Below are positions 9,434-20,051 of a stretch of DNA of 64,000 bases, piece after piece. The notes below the pieces were generated by a model. It was not told the DNA's origin. It searched no databases and saw only the letters and a list, made by a program, of their open reading frames with translations. The stretch is from the NCBI GenBank assembly GCA_003223555.1, contig QHVM01000085.1:92211-156210 (forward strand). The letters are read 5' to 3'. A program made the translations under genes and the position numbers. The stretch comes from Acidobacteriota bacterium (GTDB lineage: Bacteria; Acidobacteriota; Vicinamibacteria; Fen-336). Each line of letters opens with the position of its first letter. Within the stretch, counting starts at the first letter, position 1.

Positions 9434-9508
9434 TGGAGCGGGAAACGGGATTCGAACCCGCGACTTCGACCTTGGCAAGGTCGCACTCTACCACTGAGTT
9501 ATTCCCGC
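9434..9508 (-). tRNA. tRNA-Gly (anticodon GCC)
   Basis: Reverse complement reads GCGGGAATAACTCAGTGGTAGAGTGCGACCTTGCCAAGGTCGAAGTCGCGGGTTCGAATCCCGTTTCCCGCTCCA. Cloverleaf with anticodon loop CTTGCCAAG and encoded CCA. Confidence 0.9.
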
Positions 9509-9641: not shown

Positions 9642-9717
9642 GGCGGCGTAGCCAAGTGGTTAAGGCGGAGGTCTGCAAAACCTCTACTCTCCGGTTCAAG
9701 TCCGGACGCCGCCTCCA
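9642..9717 (+). tRNA. tRNA-Cys (anticodon GCA)
   Basis: GGCGGCGTAGCCAAGTGGTTAAGGCGGAGGTCTGCAAAACCTCTACTCTCCGGTTCAAGTCCGGACGCCGCCTCCA. Acceptor GGCGGCG/CGCCGCC, anticodon loop CTGCAAA, encoded CCA. Confidence 0.9.
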
Positions 9718-11370: not shown

Positions 11371-14007
11371 GTGGGTCTCGCTGCCCCGTGGGTCGGTCCG
11401 TACCGGATCCTGGAGAAGCTCGGAGCCGGGGCGATGGGCGAGGTATACCTGGCCGAGGACCCGCGCCTCCACCGCCGGGTCGCGCTGAAGACGCTCGCCG
11501 ATCCGGTCAACACGGCGCCCGAGGCGCGCCGTCGGCTGCTGCACGAGGCCCGCGCCGCCGCCCGGCTCAACCATCCCAACGTGGCGGCCATCTACGACGT
11601 CGTCGAATCCCCGGACAGCGTGCACCTCGTCATGGAGTACGTCCCGGGCGAGACGCTGGCCGCCCGGCTCCGCGGCGGGCGTTTGGACTCGGCGGCCGTG
11701 GTGGCCATCGGCGTCCAGCTCGCCGACGCGCTGGCCGAGGCGCATGCGATGGGGGTCATCCACCGCGACCTCAAGCCGGGCAACGTCATCGTGACCCCCG
11801 GGGAGCGGGTCAAGGTGCTCGACTTCGGCGTCGCGCGCACGCACGGGGTCCGTCTCGTCGACCCCGATTCGGGCTACAGCTCCAGCTCGCGGGACAAGTC
11901 TTCCGACGTCCGGACGATGGTCGGGACGCCGCCCTACGTCCCGCCCGAATGCTTCCTCGGCCAACCGGCCGACGCCCGAGGCGACATCTACAGCCTCGGG
12001 GTGACGCTCTTCGAGATGCTCACCGGCCGGCGGCCGTTCGCAGGGAAGGACGTGCAGGCCGTGGGTGTCGCCGCCCTCACGGAGGCGACGCCGCGCGCAC
12101 GGGGAGCCAACGACGGCGTGTCGTTCGGCCTCGACGCGATCGTGGCCCGGGCCATGGCGCGCGAGCCGCGGGACCGTTACGGCTCCGCCGCCGAGCTGGC
12201 CGCCGCGCTTCGAGACGAACAGGAGGCGCTGCGTGACGCCTCGACGCTGTCCGGGCCGGGGTGGCGCCTCCCGGACCTGCGTCGCTGGACACGGCCGCGG
12301 TCGGCCTGGGCGCTGATCACGGTCCTGCTGGCCGTCTACTCGTACAGCATCCTGCTCAAGGCTCGGCGCCCTCCGTCGAGCGCCGGCCCGCCCGGCTCCG
12401 CGGTCGTGGCCGTGCTGCCACTGGCCAACGCCACCGGCGATCCCGGCAACGATCACCTCGGCGCCGGCATCGCCGACGTCCTCATCGCCACCCTGGCCCG
12501 GGTCCCGGGCGTCACGATGATCTCGCGCAGCGCGACCCTCCCGTATCGGGAACGAAGGAAGGACGTCGCCTCCATCGCCCGCGAGCTGGGAGCCGACCTG
12601 GTGGTGGACGGGGCCGTGCAGGCCTCGGGGAAGGCGGTGCGGGTCACCCTCAGCCTGCTCCGGCCGCAATCGAACCTCGTCGCCTGGAGCGGCGCTTACG
12701 ACGGCGCGTTCTCCGACCTGTTCACGCTGCAGAACGAGGCGGCGACCGCCCTCAGCCAGGCGCTCCAGGTGACGCTCTCGCCCGAGCAGCGCCGCCGCAT
12801 CGGTCGTCCCCCGACGGCGAACGTCGAGGCGCTGGCGGATTACGTCCAGGCGCGTTCCTTCCTCCAGCGCCCGGACGTCAAGGGCGACAACCTCGAGCAC
12901 AGCATCGGCCTCTTCCAGAGCGCCCTGGCCCGGGACCCGAGATTCGCGGGCGCGCACGCCGGCCTCGGCCAGGCCTATTGGCTGCGGTTCGAGGAGATGC
13001 GGGAGGCGCAGTGGTCGGAGAAGGCCTTCGTCGCCATCACGGAGTCGTTGCGGCTGGACCCCGAGGACGCGGCCGCCCACCAGGCCCTGGCGATCGTCTA
13101 CCAGGGGAAGGGCCGGACCGATCAAGCCGAGGAGGAATTCCGCCGCGCCATCTCCCTCCTGCCCACCAGCGACGAAGCGCACAGCCTGCTCGGCCGGATG
13201 CTCTGCGAGCAGGGACGGCGAGAGGAGGGCATCGCCGAGCTGAAGAAGGCGATCGCGCTGAGGCCGAACTACTGGGGGCACCACTACGAGCTGGCGATCG
13301 CCTACTTCGACAGCGGCCGCTATCCCGAAGCGGCCGCCACCTGCCGGCGCGTCATCGAGCTCCAGCCCGACAGCTCTCGCGGCCTCCTGCTGCTGGGGAC
13401 GGTCTATTACGCCAGCGGCGACAACCGGCGAGCCATCGCCACGCTGCGGCAGGCGAACGCGCTCAGCCCGGACGCGGCCACCTACACCAATCTCGGCGCA
13501 GCGCTCCTGGCCGACCGGCGGTACGCCGAGGCCGCGCAGGCATTCGAGGAGGCGGCCCGGCGGGCGCCCAAGGCGCCGTCCAAGCAGCGGAACCTCGGCG
13601 AGGTGTACGAGCGTCTGGGCCGGGGCGAGGCTGCTCGGCAGGCCTACCGGCGCGCGGTCGAGCTCAGCCAGGAGCAGCTCCGGACCAACCCTCGTGACGC
13701 GCGCACGCTTTCCATGCTGGCCGTCGACGAGGCCAAGCTCGGCCAGTGGCCCGAGGCCCGGCGCCACGCGGACGAGGCCACGGCGCTGAGCCCGCACATG
13801 GCGGATGTCATCTACCGCAAGGCGGTCGTGCTCGCCCTGGCCAGCCGGCCGGACGACAGCCTGGCCGCTTTGGAGCAGGCGATCGCCGAGGGGTTCGGCC
13901 GCGCGCGGGCGGCGGGGGACGAGGACCTCAAGACCCTCCGCGGCCTTCGGGAGTTCCAGAGGCTGATCGGGGACGCGCCGGTCCCCGCGAAAGGAGGCTC
14001 CAAGTGA
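11371..14007 (+). CDS. Ser/Thr protein kinase with a C-terminal TPR-repeat domain
   Basis: Hanks kinase motifs (GAGAMGEVY, HRDLKPGNVIV, DFGVAR, PPYVPPE), a transmembrane segment, then multiple TPR repeats. Confidence 0.9.
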   Translation: MGLAAPWVGPYRILEKLGAGAMGEVYLAEDPRLHRRVALKTLADPVNTAPEARRRLLHEARAAARLNHPNVAAIYDVVESPDSVHLVMEYVPGETLAARLRGGRLDSAAVVAIGVQLADALAEAHAMGVIHRDLKPGNVIVTPGERVKVLDFGVARTHGVRLVDPDSGYSSSSRDKSSDVRTMVGTPPYVPPECFLGQPADARGDIYSLGVTLFEMLTGRRPFAGKDVQAVGVAALTEATPRARGANDGVSFGLDAIVARAMAREPRDRYGSAAELAAALRDEQEALRDASTLSGPGWRLPDLRRWTRPRSAWALITVLLAVYSYSILLKARRPPSSAGPPGSAVVAVLPLANATGDPGNDHLGAGIADVLIATLARVPGVTMISRSATLPYRERRKDVASIARELGADLVVDGAVQASGKAVRVTLSLLRPQSNLVAWSGAYDGAFSDLFTLQNEAATALSQALQVTLSPEQRRRIGRPPTANVEALADYVQARSFLQRPDVKGDNLEHSIGLFQSALARDPRFAGAHAGLGQAYWLRFEEMREAQWSEKAFVAITESLRLDPEDAAAHQALAIVYQGKGRTDQAEEEFRRAISLLPTSDEAHSLLGRMLCEQGRREEGIAELKKAIALRPNYWGHHYELAIAYFDSGRYPEAAATCRRVIELQPDSSRGLLLLGTVYYASGDNRRAIATLRQANALSPDAATYTNLGAALLADRRYAEAAQAFEEAARRAPKAPSKQRNLGEVYERLGRGEAARQAYRRAVELSQEQLRTNPRDARTLSMLAVDEAKLGQWPEARRHADEATALSPHMADVIYRKAVVLALASRPDDSLAALEQAIAEGFGRARAAGDEDLKTLRGLREFQRLIGDAPVPAKGGSK

Positions 14008-14513
14008 AGGGAGCAGCTCGGATCGCGATCACGTCCTGGTTCTCACTGGCCGTCTCGATGGCGCAGCCGGGCGCATCGGAGGTGACCCCCTCGCCTGGTC
14101 CGACCAACCATCCCGTGAAGATTGTCACCAAGGACAAGAACGGGAAATGCAGCGTCGACAGCTGGGGACCGAAGACAAGCCTGAGGGTGTCCGTCTCACG
14201 GAAGGACACCGTGACGTGGCAGTTCCAGAACGACTGCTCGAAGGACATGACCCTGGAGGTCGCGAACTTCCAACCGCACGGACCGTCGGTCAAGCCCGGG
14301 GAGCCCGCGGAGAAGGATCCACTCGACGACAAGTGCGCGCGCAAAGCGGCCGTGAGCCACCGGAAGACCGGCGAATTCAAGTGCGGGTTCAAGCTGACGT
14401 TCAAGGGGCCGAACGCGATCTACCACTACCCCGAGGATGCCCGAACCTACAAGTACGACATCCTGGGTGATGGTCAGCCGCTGCTCGATCCGGAGATCGA
14501 GGTCCGCCCCTGA
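14004..14513 (+). CDS. small secreted protein of unknown function
   Basis: GTG start 7 nt after RBS AAGGAGG, overlapping the kinase stop. Signal peptide KGAARIAITSWFSLAVSMAQP. Lower local GC. No recognised domain. Confidence 0.55.
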   Translation: MKGAARIAITSWFSLAVSMAQPGASEVTPSPGPTNHPVKIVTKDKNGKCSVDSWGPKTSLRVSVSRKDTVTWQFQNDCSKDMTLEVANFQPHGPSVKPGEPAEKDPLDDKCARKAAVSHRKTGEFKCGFKLTFKGPNAIYHYPEDARTYKYDILGDGQPLLDPEIEVRP

Positions 14514-14532
14514 CTCGCCGGCCAGCCCGAAG

Positions 14533-15189
14533 GGGCAGACGGTGAAGGTTCGCTTCGGGGAGTTCCTCTTCGATGACGATACGCGGCAGCTCCTGCGTGG
14601 CGGGGAGGTCGTGGCCCTGTCGCCCAAGAGCTTCGACCTCCTCCGCCACCTGCTGAAGCGACGCCCCGGCGCCGTCTCCAAGGCCGAGCTGCAGGCGCTC
14701 GTCTGGCCCGACACGCACGTGACCGGCGCCAGCCTGGCCAGCGCGGCCAGCGACCTGCGGGCGGCCCTCCAGGACCGGCGGCGCCGGCCCCGTTTCATCC
14801 GCACCGTCCACGGCTTCGGCTACGCCTTCTGCGGCGAGGCCGAGCCGTCGGGGAAGGTGAGCGAGCCGCGGCCGGCCGCAGGACCCGCGTACCGCCTGAT
14901 CTGGAACCGCCGCGAGATCGAGCTGTCCGAGGGCGAGAACGTCCTGGGCCGAGACCACGGCGCCGTGGCCTGGATCGACTCCCCGACCGTCTCCCGCCGG
15001 CATGCGCGCATCGTCGTCTCGGACGAGCAGGCCGTCCTCGAGGACCTGGGCAGCCGCAACGGGACGTGGGTCCGCGGGCGCAGGGTCACCGGCCGGCTAC
15101 GACTGGCCGACCTCGACGAGCTGAAGCTGGGCTCGGTGGTGATGGTCTTCCGGGTCTTCGAGCCGGACGAAACCGACTCCGCTCGCTAG
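14533..15189 (+). CDS. winged-helix (OmpR/CadC-type) DNA-binding domain fused to a C-terminal FHA domain
   Basis: N-terminal trans_reg_C-like region (FLFDDDTRQLLRGGEVVALSPKSFDLLRHL...VW). C-terminal FHA signature (GRDHGA ... SRRHARI ... DLGSRNGTWV). Start set at GTG 14533; the ORF track extends to 14437. Confidence 0.7.
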   Translation, partial: GQTVKVRFGEFLFDDDTRQLLRGGEVVALSPKSFDLLRHLLKRRPGAVSKAELQALVWPDTHVTGASLASAASDLRAALQDRRRRPRFIRTVHGFGYAFCGEAEPSGKVSEPRPAAGPAYRLIWNRREIELSEGENVLGRDHGAVAWIDSPTVSRRHARIVVSDEQAVLEDLGSRNGTWVRGRRVTGRLRLADLDELKLGSVVMVFRVFEPDETDSAR

Positions 15190-16019
15190 TCGGACCCGCG
15201 GGCGATCGGCAACGTGAAGGAGAAGGTCGCCCCGCGGCCCGGCGCGCTCTCGGCCCAGATCCGGCCCCCGTGCGCCTCCACGAGTCCCTTCGCGATCTTG
15301 AGGCCGAGGCCGGCGCCCAGGCGGGCGGTGCGCCTCGCCTGCCAGTAGGGCTCGAACACGTGCTCCAGGTCGCGCTCCGGAATGCCGGGCCCCTGGTCGG
15401 TGACCGCCACGCGGACCTGGCCGCCTTCCCGCCGGCCCGTCAAGGCGATGAGCCCTCCGCGAGGGGTGAACTTGATCGCGTTCCCGATGAGGTTGCCGAG
15501 CACCTGGCCGATCCGGTCCGGATCCGCCCAGACCGCCACGGGCGATTCCGGCAGCTCGCAGCCCACCACCTGCTCCTTGGCGCGGGCCTGGATGTGGAGC
15601 GCCTCGCAGCCCTCGCGCAGGAGCGACGCCAGCTCGACCGCTCGCGGCTCGACTCGGAGCGTGCGGCCGGCGTCGAGACGGCTCAGCTCCTGCAGATCCT
15701 TGATCATGCGCTCCATCCGGCTCGCCGCCCGCTTGATGATCTCCAGCACGTGGATCTTGCTCTCCTCGGGCTGAGCCGCGTCCTCGAGGAGCAGGGTCCC
15801 CATCGAGATGGCGCTGAGCGGCGTCCGCAGGTCATGGGAGACGATGGCAAGCACCTCGCCGCTCCGGCGGGGCGAAAGCCCCAGGACCCGCATCGCCGTA
15901 TGTCGCGCCATGAGCTCCTCCGATCCTCGGCCGGCCCCACGACCCGGCTCGAAGGCATTGACGGCGCCCGTCCAGGAGCGGTTCCCGGAGTCGACAAGCC
16001 TCCAGCAAACGATCAGCAA
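15186..16019 (-). CDS. sensor histidine kinase lacking a recognisable sensor domain
   Basis: HisKA H-box (SHDLRTPL) and HATPase_c N/G-boxes (GNAIKFT, DQGPGIP, GLGLKIA). Only about 50 aa precede the H-box. Start uncertain (15911 or 16019). Confidence 0.8.
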   Translation of the reverse strand: MLIVCWRLVDSGNRSWTGAVNAFEPGRGAGRGSEELMARHTAMRVLGLSPRRSGEVLAIVSHDLRTPLSAISMGTLLLEDAAQPEESKIHVLEIIKRAASRMERMIKDLQELSRLDAGRTLRVEPRAVELASLLREGCEALHIQARAKEQVVGCELPESPVAVWADPDRIGQVLGNLIGNAIKFTPRGGLIALTGRREGGQVRVAVTDQGPGIPERDLEHVFEPYWQARRTARLGAGLGLKIAKGLVEAHGGRIWAESAPGRGATFSFTLPIARGSD

Positions 16020-16105
16020 ACCGCCAGGATCGGGAGGAGAGAGCGGATGTGGGAGGCGCGCAACGGGCGCCCCCCAGCTTCGGGGAACCGGTCCGCGAAC
16101 GAGCG

Positions 16106-17221
16106 TCAGCGGAGGGCGCGCAGGTTCAAGATCTGCGTCAAGAGGCTCGTGAGGATGCTGTAGTTACCGTTGGAATACCGTCCATACTGAGAGCGGCCAT
16201 AGTAACCGTCCTCGTAACCGCGGCGGAAGCCCTCCCGGAAGTAGTAGTTGTACTCGGGCTGGTCGATGTACCGGCCCGTATAGCCGTAATTCGCATCCTG
16301 GTAGGCGTAGGAGCCTTCGGGATCGAAGCGCCAGCCGTCCTGCCGGTCGGCGCGGCCGGCCCGGAAGCCTTCCTCATATCCGTATCGGACCGCCTGCCGG
16401 AGCAGGTCCGCCCCGTACTGGTTCGTCTCGTAGTAGCGCCCGTCATAGGAGTAGCCGTAGCTGGGGGCGGTGTAGAAGTATGGGTCGTTGCTGTAGTCGT
16501 AGGAGCGCGCCAGCGCCAGACGCTGCTGGCGCAGGCGGCCCAGGTACTGCTCCTGGAAGCGGTACTGCGCGAGGCGACGCTGCTGCTCCAGGGCCTGTGC
16601 GCGCTGCTGGGCGAGGTTCAGCTGCTGCTCCAGCCGCTGGTTGTACGCCGCCGCGCGCTGGCGCTGCTGCTCGATGAGCTGCTGCTGGCGCTCCTGCGAG
16701 AGGCGCTGCTGCCGGAGCGGCTGTGCTGATGACACCTGCTGCTGAGCCTGCTGCTCTTGCCGGATCTGTCGCTGCGGCTGCTGTTGTTGGGCCTGTTGCG
16801 CCTGACGGGCCTGACGCTCCTGCTGGCGCTGGTGTTGAGCCTGCGGTTGCTGCTGCGCCTGCTGGGCCTGCCGCTCCTGGCGCTGCGCCTGCTGCCGGCC
16901 CTGCTCTTGCGCCTGTTGCTCCTGCCGGCCCTGCCGCTCCTGCTGGCGCTGCTGTTGAGCCTGCGGTTGCTGCTGTGCCTGCTGGGCCTGGCGCTCCTGC
17001 CGCTGCTGCTGGCGTTGCGCCTGCTGCTGAGCCTGTTGTTGCGCCTGTTGCTCCTGCCGGCCCTGCCGCTCCTGCTGGCGCTGCTGTTGAGCCGGCTGGG
17101 CCCGGCCTTGCTGCGGCTGATCCTGCTTCTTCTCCTTCTTGTCCTGCTCTCCCTGCTTCTGCCCCTCCTGCATCGCACTCACCAGCGCCAAGCTCGCGCG
17201 GTTCCAGCCGGTCATGATCAT
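16106..17221 (-). CDS. secreted Gln/Arg-rich tandem-repeat protein with a Tyr/Gly/Arg-rich C-terminal low-complexity domain
   Basis: Signal peptide MIMTGWNRASLALVSA. About 200 aa of imperfect roughly 40-aa repeats (QQERQGRQEQQAQQQAQQQAQRQQQRQERQAQQAQQQPQAQ...). Non-repetitive Y/G-rich tail (YGYSYDGRYY ... YGRSQYGRYSNGNY). The minus strand was chosen over antisense plus-strand ORFs because of the signal peptide and the complex tail. Confidence 0.55.
   Translation of the reverse strand: MIMTGWNRASLALVSAMQEGQKQGEQDKKEKKQDQPQQGRAQPAQQQRQQERQGRQEQQAQQQAQQQAQRQQQRQERQAQQAQQQPQAQQQRQQERQGRQEQQAQEQGRQQAQRQERQAQQAQQQPQAQHQRQQERQARQAQQAQQQQPQRQIRQEQQAQQQVSSAQPLRQQRLSQERQQQLIEQQRQRAAAYNQRLEQQLNLAQQRAQALEQQRRLAQYRFQEQYLGRLRQQRLALARSYDYSNDPYFYTAPSYGYSYDGRYYETNQYGADLLRQAVRYGYEEGFRAGRADRQDGWRFDPEGSYAYQDANYGYTGRYIDQPEYNYYFREGFRRGYEDGYYGRSQYGRYSNGNYSILTSLLTQILNLRALR
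16780..17110 (-). repeat. in-frame tandem DNA repeats (units of about 120-126 bp) encoding the Q/R-rich repeats
   Basis: Recurrent CTGCTGGCGCTG...GCCTGCTGGGCCTG blocks are visible on the plus strand. They are coding, not a CRISPR array (no spacer structure). Confidence 0.7.
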
Positions 17222-17357
17222 GAAAGCCTCCCGAGTATCACGTCCACGGATGTAACGGAGCAAGAAGCGCGCCAGTCAGGCCGCGCCGTAAACCGCGGGT
17301 TTCGAGGGCTTTGAGTCCCAAGCCGCCTGGGATAGTGTTGCTGCCGGAGGGCAACTC

Positions 17358-18497
17358 ATACCGCAAGAGAGCCCGTCTCGCGACCGCATCCTCGGCGTCG
17401 GGATCAGCGGCATCGGCTGGTGCGCGGCCGAGCACATCAAGGCATTCCTGCGCAACGCTCACGTACGCATCGTGTGGCTGCATGTCCGCGACGAGGCGCG
17501 GGCGCGGGAGAAACTGGCCCGGTACGGGGTGGCCGTGCCCGGCGTCCGTTTCACCCCGCGCTATGAGGACCTCCTGGAGTCGGCCGAGGTGGACATCGTG
17601 TCCATCACGACGCCCAACCACCTCCATGCCGGCCAGGCGGTGGCCGCCGCCCGGGCGGGCAAGCACTTCGTCCTCGAGAAGCCGACCGGCCTCGACACGC
17701 GGGAGCTGGTCCGGATCCGCAACGCGGTGCGCCGGGCGAAGGTCCGCACTATTGTCTCCTTCGAGCTGCACTACAACCCCTACCTCCGTTTCGTCCATTG
17801 GCTGCGCGCGTCGGGCCGCCTGGGCCGCCTCCGGTTCGCCCGGGTCCAGTACCTGTCCCGGGTCACCAACTGGTACTCGGGCTGGGGCTGGGTCCGGACG
17901 CGCAAGAGCGGGGGCAGCCACCTGCTGGCCGCCGGCTGCCACGCCGTCGACGCGCTGCGCTGGTGCTCGGGCCTGGAGGCGGAGGAGGTGAGCGCCTACC
18001 ACACGCGGTTCACGAAGGGCTACGAGTGGCCCACGACCATCGAGGCCAACGTGAAGCTCGGCAAGGGCGCGCTCGGCCACGTGACCAGCTCCACCGACTT
18101 CATGCTGCCCTACACGTTCGGGGTGGAGCTGATGGGCGACCGGGCGACGGTGCGCGACACGCTGATCACCTGGCTGAAGGAACAGCCGCTCGACCTCGAT
18201 GAGCTGAGGCGGGCGAACCCGTTCCCGGACGTCAAGCTCCTCGAGGGCCGCTACGGAAGCGAGAGCCCGGCCGTCCGCATCGAGACGCTCATGCCCGACT
18301 CCGCCGACGTCAGCCATCACCCCTTCCAGGGCGAGATCGACGAGATGGTGGACGCGGTACGCCGGGGCCGGGAGACGCACCTCAGCGTGTTCGACGCGCA
18401 GAAGACCATGGAGCTCTGCCTGGCCGCAGACCTCTCGGCCGAGAAGGGAGGCCGGCCGGTGAGGCTTCCCCTCATACCCGAGCACCGGCGGGACTGA
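17358..18497 (+). CDS. Gfo/Idh/MocA-family oxidoreductase without a canonical start codon
   Basis: The Rossmann motif RILGVGISGIGWCAAEHIKAF is in frame upstream of the ORF-track start (GTG 17472). No in-frame ATG/GTG/TTG lies between the stop at 17289 and the motif. The 5' end is uncertain. Confidence 0.7.
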   Translation: MPQESPSRDRILGVGISGIGWCAAEHIKAFLRNAHVRIVWLHVRDEARAREKLARYGVAVPGVRFTPRYEDLLESAEVDIVSITTPNHLHAGQAVAAARAGKHFVLEKPTGLDTRELVRIRNAVRRAKVRTIVSFELHYNPYLRFVHWLRASGRLGRLRFARVQYLSRVTNWYSGWGWVRTRKSGGSHLLAAGCHAVDALRWCSGLEAEEVSAYHTRFTKGYEWPTTIEANVKLGKGALGHVTSSTDFMLPYTFGVELMGDRATVRDTLITWLKEQPLDLDELRRANPFPDVKLLEGRYGSESPAVRIETLMPDSADVSHHPFQGEIDEMVDAVRRGRETHLSVFDAQKTMELCLAADLSAEKGGRPVRLPLIPEHRRD

Positions 18498-18659: not shown

Positions 18660-20051
18660 ATGAGCGCGTCACGACTGCGGAACGCGGCCGTCTTCGTAGG
18701 CCTGGCCGGGCTCTACTTCGTGGCCGGCAAGCTCGGCCTGAGGCTGGCGTCCGTGAACGCGAGCGCCACCGCCGTGTGGGCCCCGACGGGCATCGCGCTG
18801 GCCGCCTTCCTGACGCTCGGTTACCGCGTCTGGCCGGCCATCCTCCTGGGCGCTTTCCTGGTGAACGTGACGACGGCCGGCTCGCTGGCCACCTCCGCCA
18901 GCATCGGCGTCGGCAACACCCTGGAAGGGGTCGTCGGGGCGTACCTGGTGAACCGGTTCGCCCGCGGCCGCGACGCCCTGCAGCGCGCGCCCGGCGTCTT
19001 CAGGTTCGCAGTCCTGACGGCGATCGTGAGCACGATGGTGAGCGCCACCTGGGGAGTGACGACCCTCTCGCTGGCCGGGCTCGCCGATTGGGCGAGCTAC
19101 GGGTCCATCTGGTTGACCTGGTGGCTCGGCGACGCCGGCGGGGACCTGGTCGTGGCGCCCTTCGCGATCCTCTGGAGCGCGAGCTCCCGCCTGCGATGGA
19201 GGGGGGCCCGGGCGTTCGAGGCCGCGTTCCTGCTGCTCTCGTTCTGCCTGGTGGGCGCGATCGTGTTCGGCGGGCTCGCGCCCTCGCCGGTCAAGAACGC
19301 CCCGCTGGAGTTCCTGTGCCTCCCGTTGCTCATCTGGGCGGCCTTCCGTTTCGGGCAACGCGAGGTGGCGACCGGGACCGCCATCCTGGCCGGGATCGCC
19401 ACCTGGGGGACGCTGCACGGCCTCGGGCCCTTCGCGCGGAGCGCGCAGAACGAGTCCCTGCTGCTGCTGCAAGCCTTCATGGCGGTGACCTCCGTGACGA
19501 CGCTGGCGCTGGCCGCCGTCGTATCGGAGCGCAAGGACGCCGAGAGGCGGCTGCGGCGCCTCGCGGTGAGCGACTCCCTGACCGGCCTCGGCAACTACCG
19601 CCGCATGATGGCCGCCCTCGCGGCAGAGATCGGGAGGTCGCAGCGCACCGGCCGGCCGTTCGCGGTCCTCTTCTTCGACCTGGACGACCTCAAGGGGATC
19701 AACGACCGTCATGGCCACCTCGCGGGCAACCAGGCGCTGCGCCGGGTGGCGGATGCGCTGCGCGTGTCCTGCCGGTCCATAGACACCGCGGCCCGTTTCG
19801 GGGGCGACGAGTTCGCGCTGGTGCTGCCCGAGACGCGCGAAGCCGCGGCCAGGCTGGTGGCGCGCCGCGTCTCGGACGAGCTGGCGCTGGACCTGGAGCC
19901 GCCGCGCCTGTCCTTGAGCGTGGGCGTCGCCGAGTACCCTCGGGATGGCGGGACGGCCGAAGAGCTGCTGGGAGCCGTCGATCACGCGCTATACCAGGCC
20001 AAGGCCGGCTTGCCGTCTCTCCGCTCCGCCCGGAGACGGTCACGACGCTGA
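18660..20051 (+). CDS. MASE1-domain diguanylate cyclase (GGDEF)
   Basis: N-terminal multi-helix MASE1-like membrane region. C-terminal GGDEF domain (RFGGDEF, LTGLGNYR). Confidence 0.85.
   Translation: MSASRLRNAAVFVGLAGLYFVAGKLGLRLASVNASATAVWAPTGIALAAFLTLGYRVWPAILLGAFLVNVTTAGSLATSASIGVGNTLEGVVGAYLVNRFARGRDALQRAPGVFRFAVLTAIVSTMVSATWGVTTLSLAGLADWASYGSIWLTWWLGDAGGDLVVAPFAILWSASSRLRWRGARAFEAAFLLLSFCLVGAIVFGGLAPSPVKNAPLEFLCLPLLIWAAFRFGQREVATGTAILAGIATWGTLHGLGPFARSAQNESLLLLQAFMAVTSVTTLALAAVVSERKDAERRLRRLAVSDSLTGLGNYRRMMAALAAEIGRSQRTGRPFAVLFFDLDDLKGINDRHGHLAGNQALRRVADALRVSCRSIDTAARFGGDEFALVLPETREAAARLVARRVSDELALDLEPPRLSLSVGVAEYPRDGGTAEELLGAVDHALYQAKAGLPSLRSARRRSRR

Follow-up and report, generated by a model that had tools for sequence, protein, structure and literature searches.

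A locus within a 64,000-nucleotide stretch of an Acidobacteriota genome (contig QHVM01000085.1; the whole stretch is referred to as the window) raises the question of whether a repetitive, glutamine-rich open reading frame (ORF) on its minus strand is a gene and, if so, what its product does. In the original prediction, the ORF was read as a secreted Gln/Arg-rich tandem-repeat protein with a prion-like tail, and the strand assignment was left for confirmation. Follow-up analysis revealed that the minus strand is the coding strand and that the gene belongs to a large protein family whose members, judging from sequence comparison, consist of a Sec signal peptide, a very hydrophilic spacer and a conserved C-terminal core of around 200 amino acids. 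We tentatively propose, with a probability of roughly 0.45, that they are exported, hydrophilin-like stress proteins of the cell envelope.

The ORF listing gives a minus-strand frame of 385 amino acids (16106..17263), which starts mechanically with the TTG at position 17263. The favored gene model spans positions 16106-17221 (-) and encodes 371 amino acids; its ATG at 17221 was taken as the likelier start because a GGGAGG ribosome-binding site is located 5 nt before it. In the window, which has a G+C content of around 70%, the complete minus-strand ORF has GC values of 0.77/0.39/0.84 at the three codon positions, and its non-repetitive C-terminal part shows a profile of 0.58/0.44/0.85, which is typical for genes of the window. 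As predicted, long antisense ORFs are present on the plus strand (16049-16729, 16723-17217 and 16757-17314), and gene callers pick equivalent antisense ORFs in several relatives, which could be taken to mean that the plus-strand ORFs (16049-17314) are the true genes and the minus-strand ORF is spurious. However, over the conserved core the GC content at third codon positions (GC3) is 0.68 for the plus-strand frame versus 0.85 for the minus-strand frame, and Leu-rich plus-strand ORFs opposite the repeat arise automatically when a coding sequence rich in CAG is complemented. The decisive evidence comes from comparison across the family: the minus-strand frame is kept across phyla, and one open frame joins signal peptide, spacer and core, which indicates that the Q-rich tract, too, is translated on the minus strand. 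Plus-strand coding is thereby effectively refuted, the minus-strand assignment is upheld by both the GC3 profile and frame conservation, and ORF 16106-17221 is a real gene. The features of the locus are as follows:

16106..17221, minus strand: gene model, 371 codons and a stop codon (16106-16108); based on codon-position GC and a frame kept in at least 562 genomes
17227..17232, minus strand: Shine-Dalgarno-like GGGAGG, 5 nt 5' of the ATG; read from the sequence
17171..17221, minus strand: signal-peptide-like N-terminus MIMTGWNRASLALVSAM, shorter than in homologues; based on hydrophobicity and comparison with the homologue P0037
17096..17170, minus strand: K/E/Q-rich lead-in of the spacer, residues 18-42
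16967..17095, minus strand: tandem repeat unit 1, residues 43-85 (43 amino acids); Tandem Repeats Finder (TRF) and reading at the protein level
16847..16966, minus strand: tandem repeat unit 2, residues 86-125 (40 amino acids); TRF and reading at the protein level
16778..16846, minus strand: partial repeat unit 3, residues 126-148 (23 amino acids); TRF and reading at the protein level
16712..16777, minus strand: spacer end, Q-rich but degenerate (residues 149-170), with an internal GTG (V163) that serves as the start of the 209-amino acid protein in the NCBI annotation
16508..16711, minus strand: Q/R/L-rich helical hairpin, residues 171-238, modeled as the first part of the family core; AlphaFold2 and conserved columns
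16157..16507, minus strand: Tyr-rich domain, residues 239-355, modeled with two beta-hairpins and two GxxxG-type helices; AlphaFold2 and invariant Y, G and D columns
16109..16156, minus strand: amphipathic C-terminal helix ILTSLLTQILNLRALR; pattern kept in the family alignment, modeled as H358-365
16757..17314, plus strand: Leu-rich antisense ORF that results from CAG/CTG complementarity and is no gene; outside the CAG-rich tract its GC3 does not mirror that of the sense frame, and it overlaps the ribosome-binding site of the sense gene

The compositions described in the original prediction were recovered by residue counts: residues 18-170 consist of 52% Q, 12% R, 12% A and 8% E, and the last 133 residues (239-371) of 19.5% Y, 12% G, 12% R and 7.5% D. 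The tandem repeats in the DNA are likewise real and well above chance, with TRF detecting 2.4 copies of a 132-bp period at 16787-17093 (86% matches, 6% indels, score 431). The claim of about 200 residues of near-perfect repeats, however, was too generous, as the array proper, which contains indels, is confined to residues 43-148 (around 106 amino acids) and comprises one unit of 43, one of 40 and a partial one of 23 amino acids, and the Q-rich tract outside these residues is non-periodic. The mature protein has a molecular weight of around 42.6 kDa, a pI of 9.9 and a grand average of hydropathy (GRAVY) of -1.86. Its spacer of approximately 153-155 amino acids contains 51-52% Gln, 25% charged residues and 2% hydrophobic residues, with a net charge of +10 and a GRAVY of -2.63; a content of around 50% Gln is very rare for an exported bacterial protein.

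Searches with the C-terminal 181 amino acids retrieved at least 2,187 protein clusters at 90% identity (E <= 0.01). The best 120 of these 2,187 clusters are 62-100% identical to the query, or 62-73% if the identical record is set aside. When representatives at 50% identity were scanned exhaustively with HMMER, 673 clusters were obtained, 133 of them below 1e-30, and the matches are located at the C-terminus of nearly all full-length hits, which are proteins of roughly 200-520 amino acids. The family occurs in Gram-negative bacteria of soil and is encoded in at least 562 species-representative genomes, with carriers among Terriglobia, Blastocatellia, Vicinamibacteria, Binatia, metagenome-assembled genomes (MAGs) labeled 'delta proteobacterium', Ca. 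Udaeobacter, Lysobacterales (including the isolate Luteimonas saliphila SJ-9) and Steroidobacteraceae. Among Acidobacteriota, Pseudomonadota/Lysobacterales and Verrucomicrobiota, the core is 54-69% identical, which is unusually high for an exported protein that is not a housekeeping protein; this cross-phylum identity suggests either horizontal spread among soil bacteria or a very strong constraint imposed by a conserved ligand. Some genomes carry paralogues on separate contigs (loci L019, L023 and L058 in one MAG, L029 and L075 in another); no second copy of the family gene was found in the 64-kb window.

The earlier statement that the protein belongs to no standard annotated family held up, as the full window protein has no meaningful match in Pfam (E up to 10) or NCBIfam. 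Pfam searches with 45 full-length homologues returned only low-complexity noise (such as Ndc1_Nup and PA26) and weak matches to Yae1_N, and literature searches for Gln-rich or Tyr-rich acidobacterial or periplasmic proteins found no description of the family. The family is thus new to description and present in the databases only as 'hypothetical protein', often cut short. The NCBI record of the identical protein, 'hypothetical protein DMF80_17130 [Acidobacteria bacterium]', comprises 209 amino acids and starts at an internal GTG after the repeats, and the full 371-amino acid product has no record in the gene-call collection. Gene callers usually cut the true gene to approximately 170-210 amino acids and call an antisense Leu-rich ORF instead, a systematic misannotation that arises from the CAG/CTG symmetry. 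In L003, L087 and L090, for example, proteins of 183-191 amino acids plus an antisense ORF in the spacer were called, whereas the true ORFs encode 391-396 amino acids with strong signal peptides. Antisense ORF calls that lie opposite a family gene and have no Pfam match were found at the following positions:

L003, 5500-5964
L004, 2-427
L005, 2-337
L006, 1-180
L087, 7362-7898
L088, 7270-7542
L090, 7434-7937

Databases therefore misrepresent the family through truncated calls, and neither Pfam nor NCBIfam holds a model for it.

To describe the architecture, the full ORFs were rebuilt in 80 genome loci, which resulted in 66 complete members. In around 62 of these 66 loci, a canonical signal peptide, the spacer and the core are all encoded in one unbroken ORF. 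The signal peptides of the homologues have a 10-amino acid hydrophobicity maximum of around 1.75-3.3, mostly above 2.2, and typically end with '...AYAQQ' or '...TNAQQ'. The hydrophobic stretch of the window protein comprises only nine residues ('ASLALVSAM'), and its best 10-amino acid Kyte-Doolittle mean of 1.40 is the lowest among the complete members with a signal peptide (the comparison covers around 62 homologues); compared with P0037 ('MHSRNQRTLVLALSAVSLAGSAWA'), its hydrophobic core appears to be approximately 7-8 residues shorter. The predicted signal peptide is thus canonical in the homologues and weak in the window copy, for which export is only weakly indicated. A PEP-CTERM sorting signal for exosortase, which is common in Acidobacteria, was also considered; however, the C-terminus NGNYSILTSLLTQILNLRALR contains no PEP motif, its helix is amphipathic rather than hydrophobic, and no NCBIfam match was obtained.

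The spacer is the variable part of the protein. It ranges from 39 to 283 amino acids (median 158) and, pooled over the members, contains 44% Gln, 10% Arg, 9% Ala, 7% Glu and 7% Lys; most members have around 45-55% Gln together with R, E, K and A, and some are Pro-rich. In-frame tandem repeats were detected in the spacer DNA of 49 of the 66 members; they are lineage-specific, with periods of 9-58 amino acids and up to 15.9 copies. The suggestion that the repeats could make the locus length-variable is supported by comparisons between relatives: L075 and L076 have cores that are 99% identical, but lengths of 355 and 444 amino acids, respectively, with a 14-amino acid unit occurring around 13 times in L076, and L028 and L031 differ by 95 amino acids in length with near-identical cores, although short-read MAGs can collapse repeats. 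In L089 (7200-8546), the spacer is a (PQ)n Pro-Gln run, P0124 has a Pro/Ala/Lys-rich spacer, and in P0084/L056 a lipoprotein-type signal ('VISC') is followed by a Cys-rich segment that replaces the Gln tract. Because the repeats are lineage-specific and Pro-rich or (PQ)n sequences can replace them, the comparison indicates that the length and hydrophilicity of the spacer are retained across the family and its sequence is not. In the AlphaFold2 models, the spacer of the window protein forms long helices (H44-112 with a predicted local distance difference test (pLDDT) score of up to around 90, H127-163 with 45-65). With repeats expanded to different extents next to an unchanging core, the family offers natural material for studies of polyglutamine helices and of the evolution of spacers.

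Three further assemblies match the window at 100% identity, and their contigs (L004, L005 and L006) end at window positions 17183, 17093 and 16936, respectively, that is, at or inside the Q-rich tract, which implies that this tract breaks short-read assemblies. These assemblies probably share their sample of origin or stem from sister samples. No metagenome contig was matched by a degenerate DNA pattern designed for the N-terminus.

In contrast to the spacer, the core is the most conserved part of the protein, with 55-72% identity across phyla. An alignment of 45 homologues contains 49 invariant columns, and the window protein has all 30 invariant columns of alignment A1 and is 59-72% identical to 47 homologues. 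AlphaFold2 was run with the 209-amino acid core and 48 sequences, and with the full-length protein. The core run reached a pLDDT of 85 and a predicted template modeling score of 0.82; the full-length run gave the same order of secondary structures, a mean pLDDT of 73-75 in four of five models and a pLDDT of around 85-97 for the core of the best model. In the models, a long helical hairpin (H176-213 and H217-238, block-mean pLDDT of around 80-94) is followed by a beta-hairpin, a helix with GYEEGFRAGRAD, a helix with FREGFRRGYEDG, a second beta-hairpin and a short amphipathic C-terminal helix (H358-365), where the confidence drops at the extreme end. In the conserved helices GYEEGFRAGRADRQDG and FREGFRRGYEDGYYG, every fourth position is a Gly, and such GxxxG-type helices are likely to pack tightly against each other. 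No sequence match and no fold match for the core was found in the PDB, and the modeled fold is apparently novel. What had been called a prion-like tail rich in Tyr and Gly is hence a conserved domain that is modeled as folded.

The Gly-repeat helices resemble those of FliH/YscL and Yae1-Lto1 at the level of the motif only. The Gly residue at every fourth position in both helices accounts for the spurious 'FliH' labels in JGI annotations and for the weak matches to Yae1_N (GX3 motif), which were obtained for four of the 45 full-length homologues; the window protein itself has no significant Pfam match to FliH or Yae1_N and no NCBIfam match to FliH. Moreover, in contrast to FliH, the family is exported, and the census of neighbors revealed no flagellar or type III secretion context.

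Indications of a function come from the genomic neighborhood. No fixed operon partner was found by de novo clustering of neighbors or by a Pfam census of 149 immediate neighbors, and the genes next to the window copy (histidine kinase, FHA/OmpR-type regulator and Ser/Thr kinase) are not conserved beside the homologues. Stress genes noticed in well-annotated neighborhoods of the family served as seeds for a phmmer search of 86 non-duplicate loci (932 kb), the ORFs of which were taken from all six frames. With a reach of around 6 kb, at least one stress family was found in 48 and at least two families in 28 of the 86 loci; after collapsing to lineages at 85% identity, this was the case in 30 and 19 of 58, respectively. 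CsbD was matched in 19 loci, DUF3309 in 15, BON, DUF5670 and Ysc84 in 13 each, YtxH in nine, Transgly_assoc in five and entericidin in three. Pfam confirmed around 95 of the 101 ORFs of the scan, including 14 BON proteins, and most of the genes are encoded on the same strand as the family gene (DUF3309 15/16, Ysc84 14/14, BON 13/14, YtxH 9/9). Neither the 64-kb window nor the control loci (498 kb) gave a match; these control loci, however, essentially represent one syntenic neighborhood repeated, so that the background rate is poorly sampled, which weakens the case for a role in stress.

The names of CsbD, YtxH and YflT derive from sigma-B general stress genes of B. subtilis, and in E. coli the genes for OsmY (BON), entericidin and YeaQ/YmgE (Transgly_assoc) are regulated by RpoS. 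Several of these genes can be clustered around a single family gene. The L087 copy is surrounded by CsbD, DUF1440, BON, Transgly_assoc and DUF5670 genes with Ysc84 directly downstream, and the L088 copy by YflT, DUF3309 (twice), CsbD, DUF5670 and DUF883 genes with a double-BON protein directly downstream. The L090 and L003 copies lie near CsbD and YtxH, and the L002 copy near entericidin, an M48 peptidase and BON. The dense stress island of L088 (12346-15376 and surroundings) also encodes an Fe-superoxide dismutase, VIT1, encapsulin (Linocin_M18) and an encapsulated-ferritin cargo protein.

These observations led us to the proposal that the protein is exported to the cell envelope, where it may be stress-protective, for example during drying, osmotic stress or in the stationary phase. 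The conserved head would dock on a component of the envelope or self-associate, and the long, hydrated Gln-rich spacer would serve as a water-binding brush or shield, the length of which is free to evolve. Hydrophilins are defined by a hydrophilicity index above 1 and a Gly content above 6% (Garay-Arroyo criteria, quoted in PMC7448490), and some bacterial proteins resembling late embryogenesis abundant (LEA) proteins possess signal peptides (PMC7448490). A further criterion is accumulation under water deficit, to which the nearby general-stress genes may point. With an index of 1.86 and a marginal 6.5% Gly, the window protein lies above both thresholds, and the index exceeds 1.0 in all 65 members tested (minimum 1.03, median 1.95). 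Extreme hydrophilicity and tandem repeats are shared with hydrophilins and LEA-like proteins such as B. subtilis GsiB, E. coli YciG with its KGG repeats and Zymomonas Zmo0994, and the position of family genes beside classical general-stress genes adds to the likeness to general-stress repeat proteins. In contrast to the family with its large, conserved C-terminal domain that is modeled as folded, however, classical hydrophilins are wholly disordered; GsiB- and YciG-type proteins are rich in Gly, Lys and Glu rather than in Gln, and no Pfam match to LEA or KGG repeat models was obtained at E values of up to 10. The OsmY/BON proteins of the periplasm are likewise exported and stress-associated, and BON genes are frequent same-strand neighbors (13 loci), but the family lacks a BON domain as well as any sequence or fold similarity to them, so that the link is one of neighborhood only. 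The closest kind appears to be exported, hydrophilic, tandem-repeat proteins associated with stress, among which the content of around 50% Gln and a core without a known fold relative are unusual.

Several points weigh against this proposal. Only 18% of the members pass both hydrophilin criteria, as the median Gly content is 5.0%, and the core, which is predicted to be folded, sets the family apart from classical disordered LEA proteins and hydrophilins. Three of the five models of the AlphaFold2 core run had a low mean confidence (52.3, 52.3 and 42.4). The link to stress is drawn from gene neighborhood, i.e., guilt by association, which is not proof. The immediate neighbors are heterogeneous, the window copy and the copies of Lysobacterales are located outside stress islands, and the signal peptide of the window copy is marginal. 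If the proposal is correct, dominant soil phyla, Acidobacteriota and others, would share an exported protein that is abundant, strongly conserved and associated with islands of general-stress genes, and hence a candidate factor for surviving drying and osmotic shock. How soil microbes survive such conditions is a central question of their ecology. A more far-reaching version, which we regard as rather speculative, is that these proteins are a new class of exported envelope protectants that is widespread among soil bacteria: a Tyr-rich head with a novel fold would dock to the envelope, and the polyglutamine-type spacer, which is tuned as repeats rapidly expand and contract, would form a hydrated brush or gel, or perhaps a condensate or glass, on the cell surface or in the periplasm during drying and rewetting. 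They would represent a bacterial, extracytoplasmic counterpart of LEA proteins and hydrophilins, and this class of protectants would have been hidden so far because gene finders truncate the gene.

The same architecture could also serve a mechanical purpose. Long periplasmic spacers are found in FtsN, DamX and DedD (a Q-rich linker with a SPOR domain), in TonB (a Pro-rich rod) and in TolA (a long helix), and the family shares with them the layout of an N-terminal export or anchor signal, a low-complexity Gln/Pro-rich spacer and a globular C-terminal head. Accordingly, the spacer could set the distance of the head across the periplasm, where the head would bind to peptidoglycan, to the outer membrane or to a partner, and an uncleaved signal anchor or a lipid would keep the N-terminus at the membrane. 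Such a tether would fit the conservation of spacer presence and hydrophilicity without conservation of sequence, the TonB-like (PQ)n or Pro-rich spacers of some members, the lipobox of the P0084/L056 variant and the predicted long helices, which are broken at the prolines that open each repeat unit. However, the signal peptides of the family look cleavable and unlike transmembrane anchors: AxA-type cleavage motifs directly precede the spacer in most members ('AYAQQ', 'TNAQQ'), and cleavage would create a free N-terminus with nothing to tether. A seven-fold variation in spacer length (39-283 amino acids), even among close relatives, is hard to reconcile with a distance ruler; furthermore, Pfam searches detected no SPOR, TonB_C or TolA domains, and the neighborhoods contain no division or Tol-Pal genes. 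We therefore consider a tether unlikely, albeit worth keeping in mind. Still less probable is the idea of the original prediction that the composition points to an amyloid, phase-separating or matrix protein, which would assemble by means of its Q-rich repeats and its Tyr/Gly/Arg-rich C-terminus into an extracellular gel, condensate or fiber. Gln, Tyr and Arg are typical 'sticker' residues of condensates, and with 52% Gln in the spacer and 19.5% Tyr and 12% Arg in the last 133 residues, the protein is rich in all three; the family is also exported, and CsgF is reported as a precedent for a phase-separating exported bacterial protein (PMC10133297). Curli and Fap amyloids and prion-like Q/N-rich domains share with the family the features of being exported, Gln-rich and repeat-containing; however, curli and Fap proteins have beta-rich repeats and a dedicated secretion operon, whereas the repeats of the window protein are modeled as helical. 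Prion-like Q/N-rich domains, for their part, carry few charged residues and are disordered or prone to aggregation. Pfam searches revealed no match to Curlin_rpt or to Fap-type repeat families, and neither recurrent amyloid-secretion genes nor csg- or fap-like neighbors were found in the neighborhoods. In addition, the Tyr-rich part is a conserved and confidently modeled folded domain rather than a low-complexity sequence, and the Q-rich tract, being 25% charged, only 2% hydrophobic, predicted to be helical and replaced by Pro-rich spacers in some members, resembles a hydrophilic spacer more than an amyloid or prion core. The amyloid-like reading of the composition thus seems improbable.

The window copy itself is atypical. 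For comparison, 80 metagenome loci were fetched with the neighboring GFO/IDH/MocA oxidoreductase as the query, and none of them contains the family gene. In L102, L107, L110, L119 and L120, blastn and alignments revealed a gap of 29-206 bp between the kinase block and the oxidoreductase gene, which measures around 1,359 bp in the window. The difference corresponds to the following segment:

16034..17382, no strand, approximate bounds: extra segment of around 1.35 kb with the gene and its 5' and 3' flanks; absent from syntenic relatives

The gene and its flanks thus appear to be a recent, lineage-specific single-gene insertion between the histidine kinase and the oxidoreductase, whereas a shared loss in the relatives is less likely. 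Neither terminal (inverted) repeats nor a target-site duplication were found at the ends of the insertion. In the oxidoreductase gene (17472-18497, +), the stretch from the upstream stop codon at 17289-17291 to the GTG at 17472 lacks any ATG, GTG or TTG; however, the conserved N-terminus of the Rossmann fold, 'RILGVGISGIGWCAAEHIKAF' (around 17382-17444), is still in frame upstream of this GTG, and related oxidoreductases start with an ATG or GTG just before the Rossmann motif. It seems that the original start codon was displaced when the Q-rich gene inserted, so that the oxidoreductase would be truncated and lack the GxGxxG motif, use a non-standard start or be a pseudogene.

Given this insertion, the shortened signal peptide and the absence of a stress island, export and regulation of the window copy may differ from those of typical members. 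It could even be a stray, recently inserted paralogue that is decaying and functionless, a reading that concerns the window copy only. The gene is absent at this position from all syntenic relatives, lies outside a stress island, has the weakest signal peptide among members that possess one, and its insertion apparently removed the start codon of the neighboring gene. However, 371 codons are intact with a GC3 of 0.84 and a good ribosome-binding site, every invariant residue of the core is kept, and the identical sequence is present in four assemblies; decay of the window copy thus seems quite unlikely.

The surroundings of the insertion are rich in signaling genes (11371-16019 and 18660-20051). 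An 878-amino acid Ser/Thr kinase with TPR repeats, a protein with an FHA and an OmpR-type DNA-binding domain and a MASE1-GGDEF diguanylate cyclase are encoded here, and a soluble HisKA/HATPase kinase is encoded 87 bp downstream of the family gene on the minus strand. Relatives without the Q-rich gene retain the block that extends from the FHA/OmpR-type regulator and the kinase to the oxidoreductase. Regulatory elements of the family gene could not be assigned: no matches to a sigma-70 promoter, an intrinsic terminator or Rfam elements were obtained near the gene, and sigma-54, CRP/FNR and EcfG-type boxes showed no convincing enrichment upstream of 66 homologues. The only Rfam and ARAGORN matches of the window are a tRNA-Gly(GCC) at 9434-9508 (-) and a divergent tRNA-Cys(GCA) at 9642-9717 (+).

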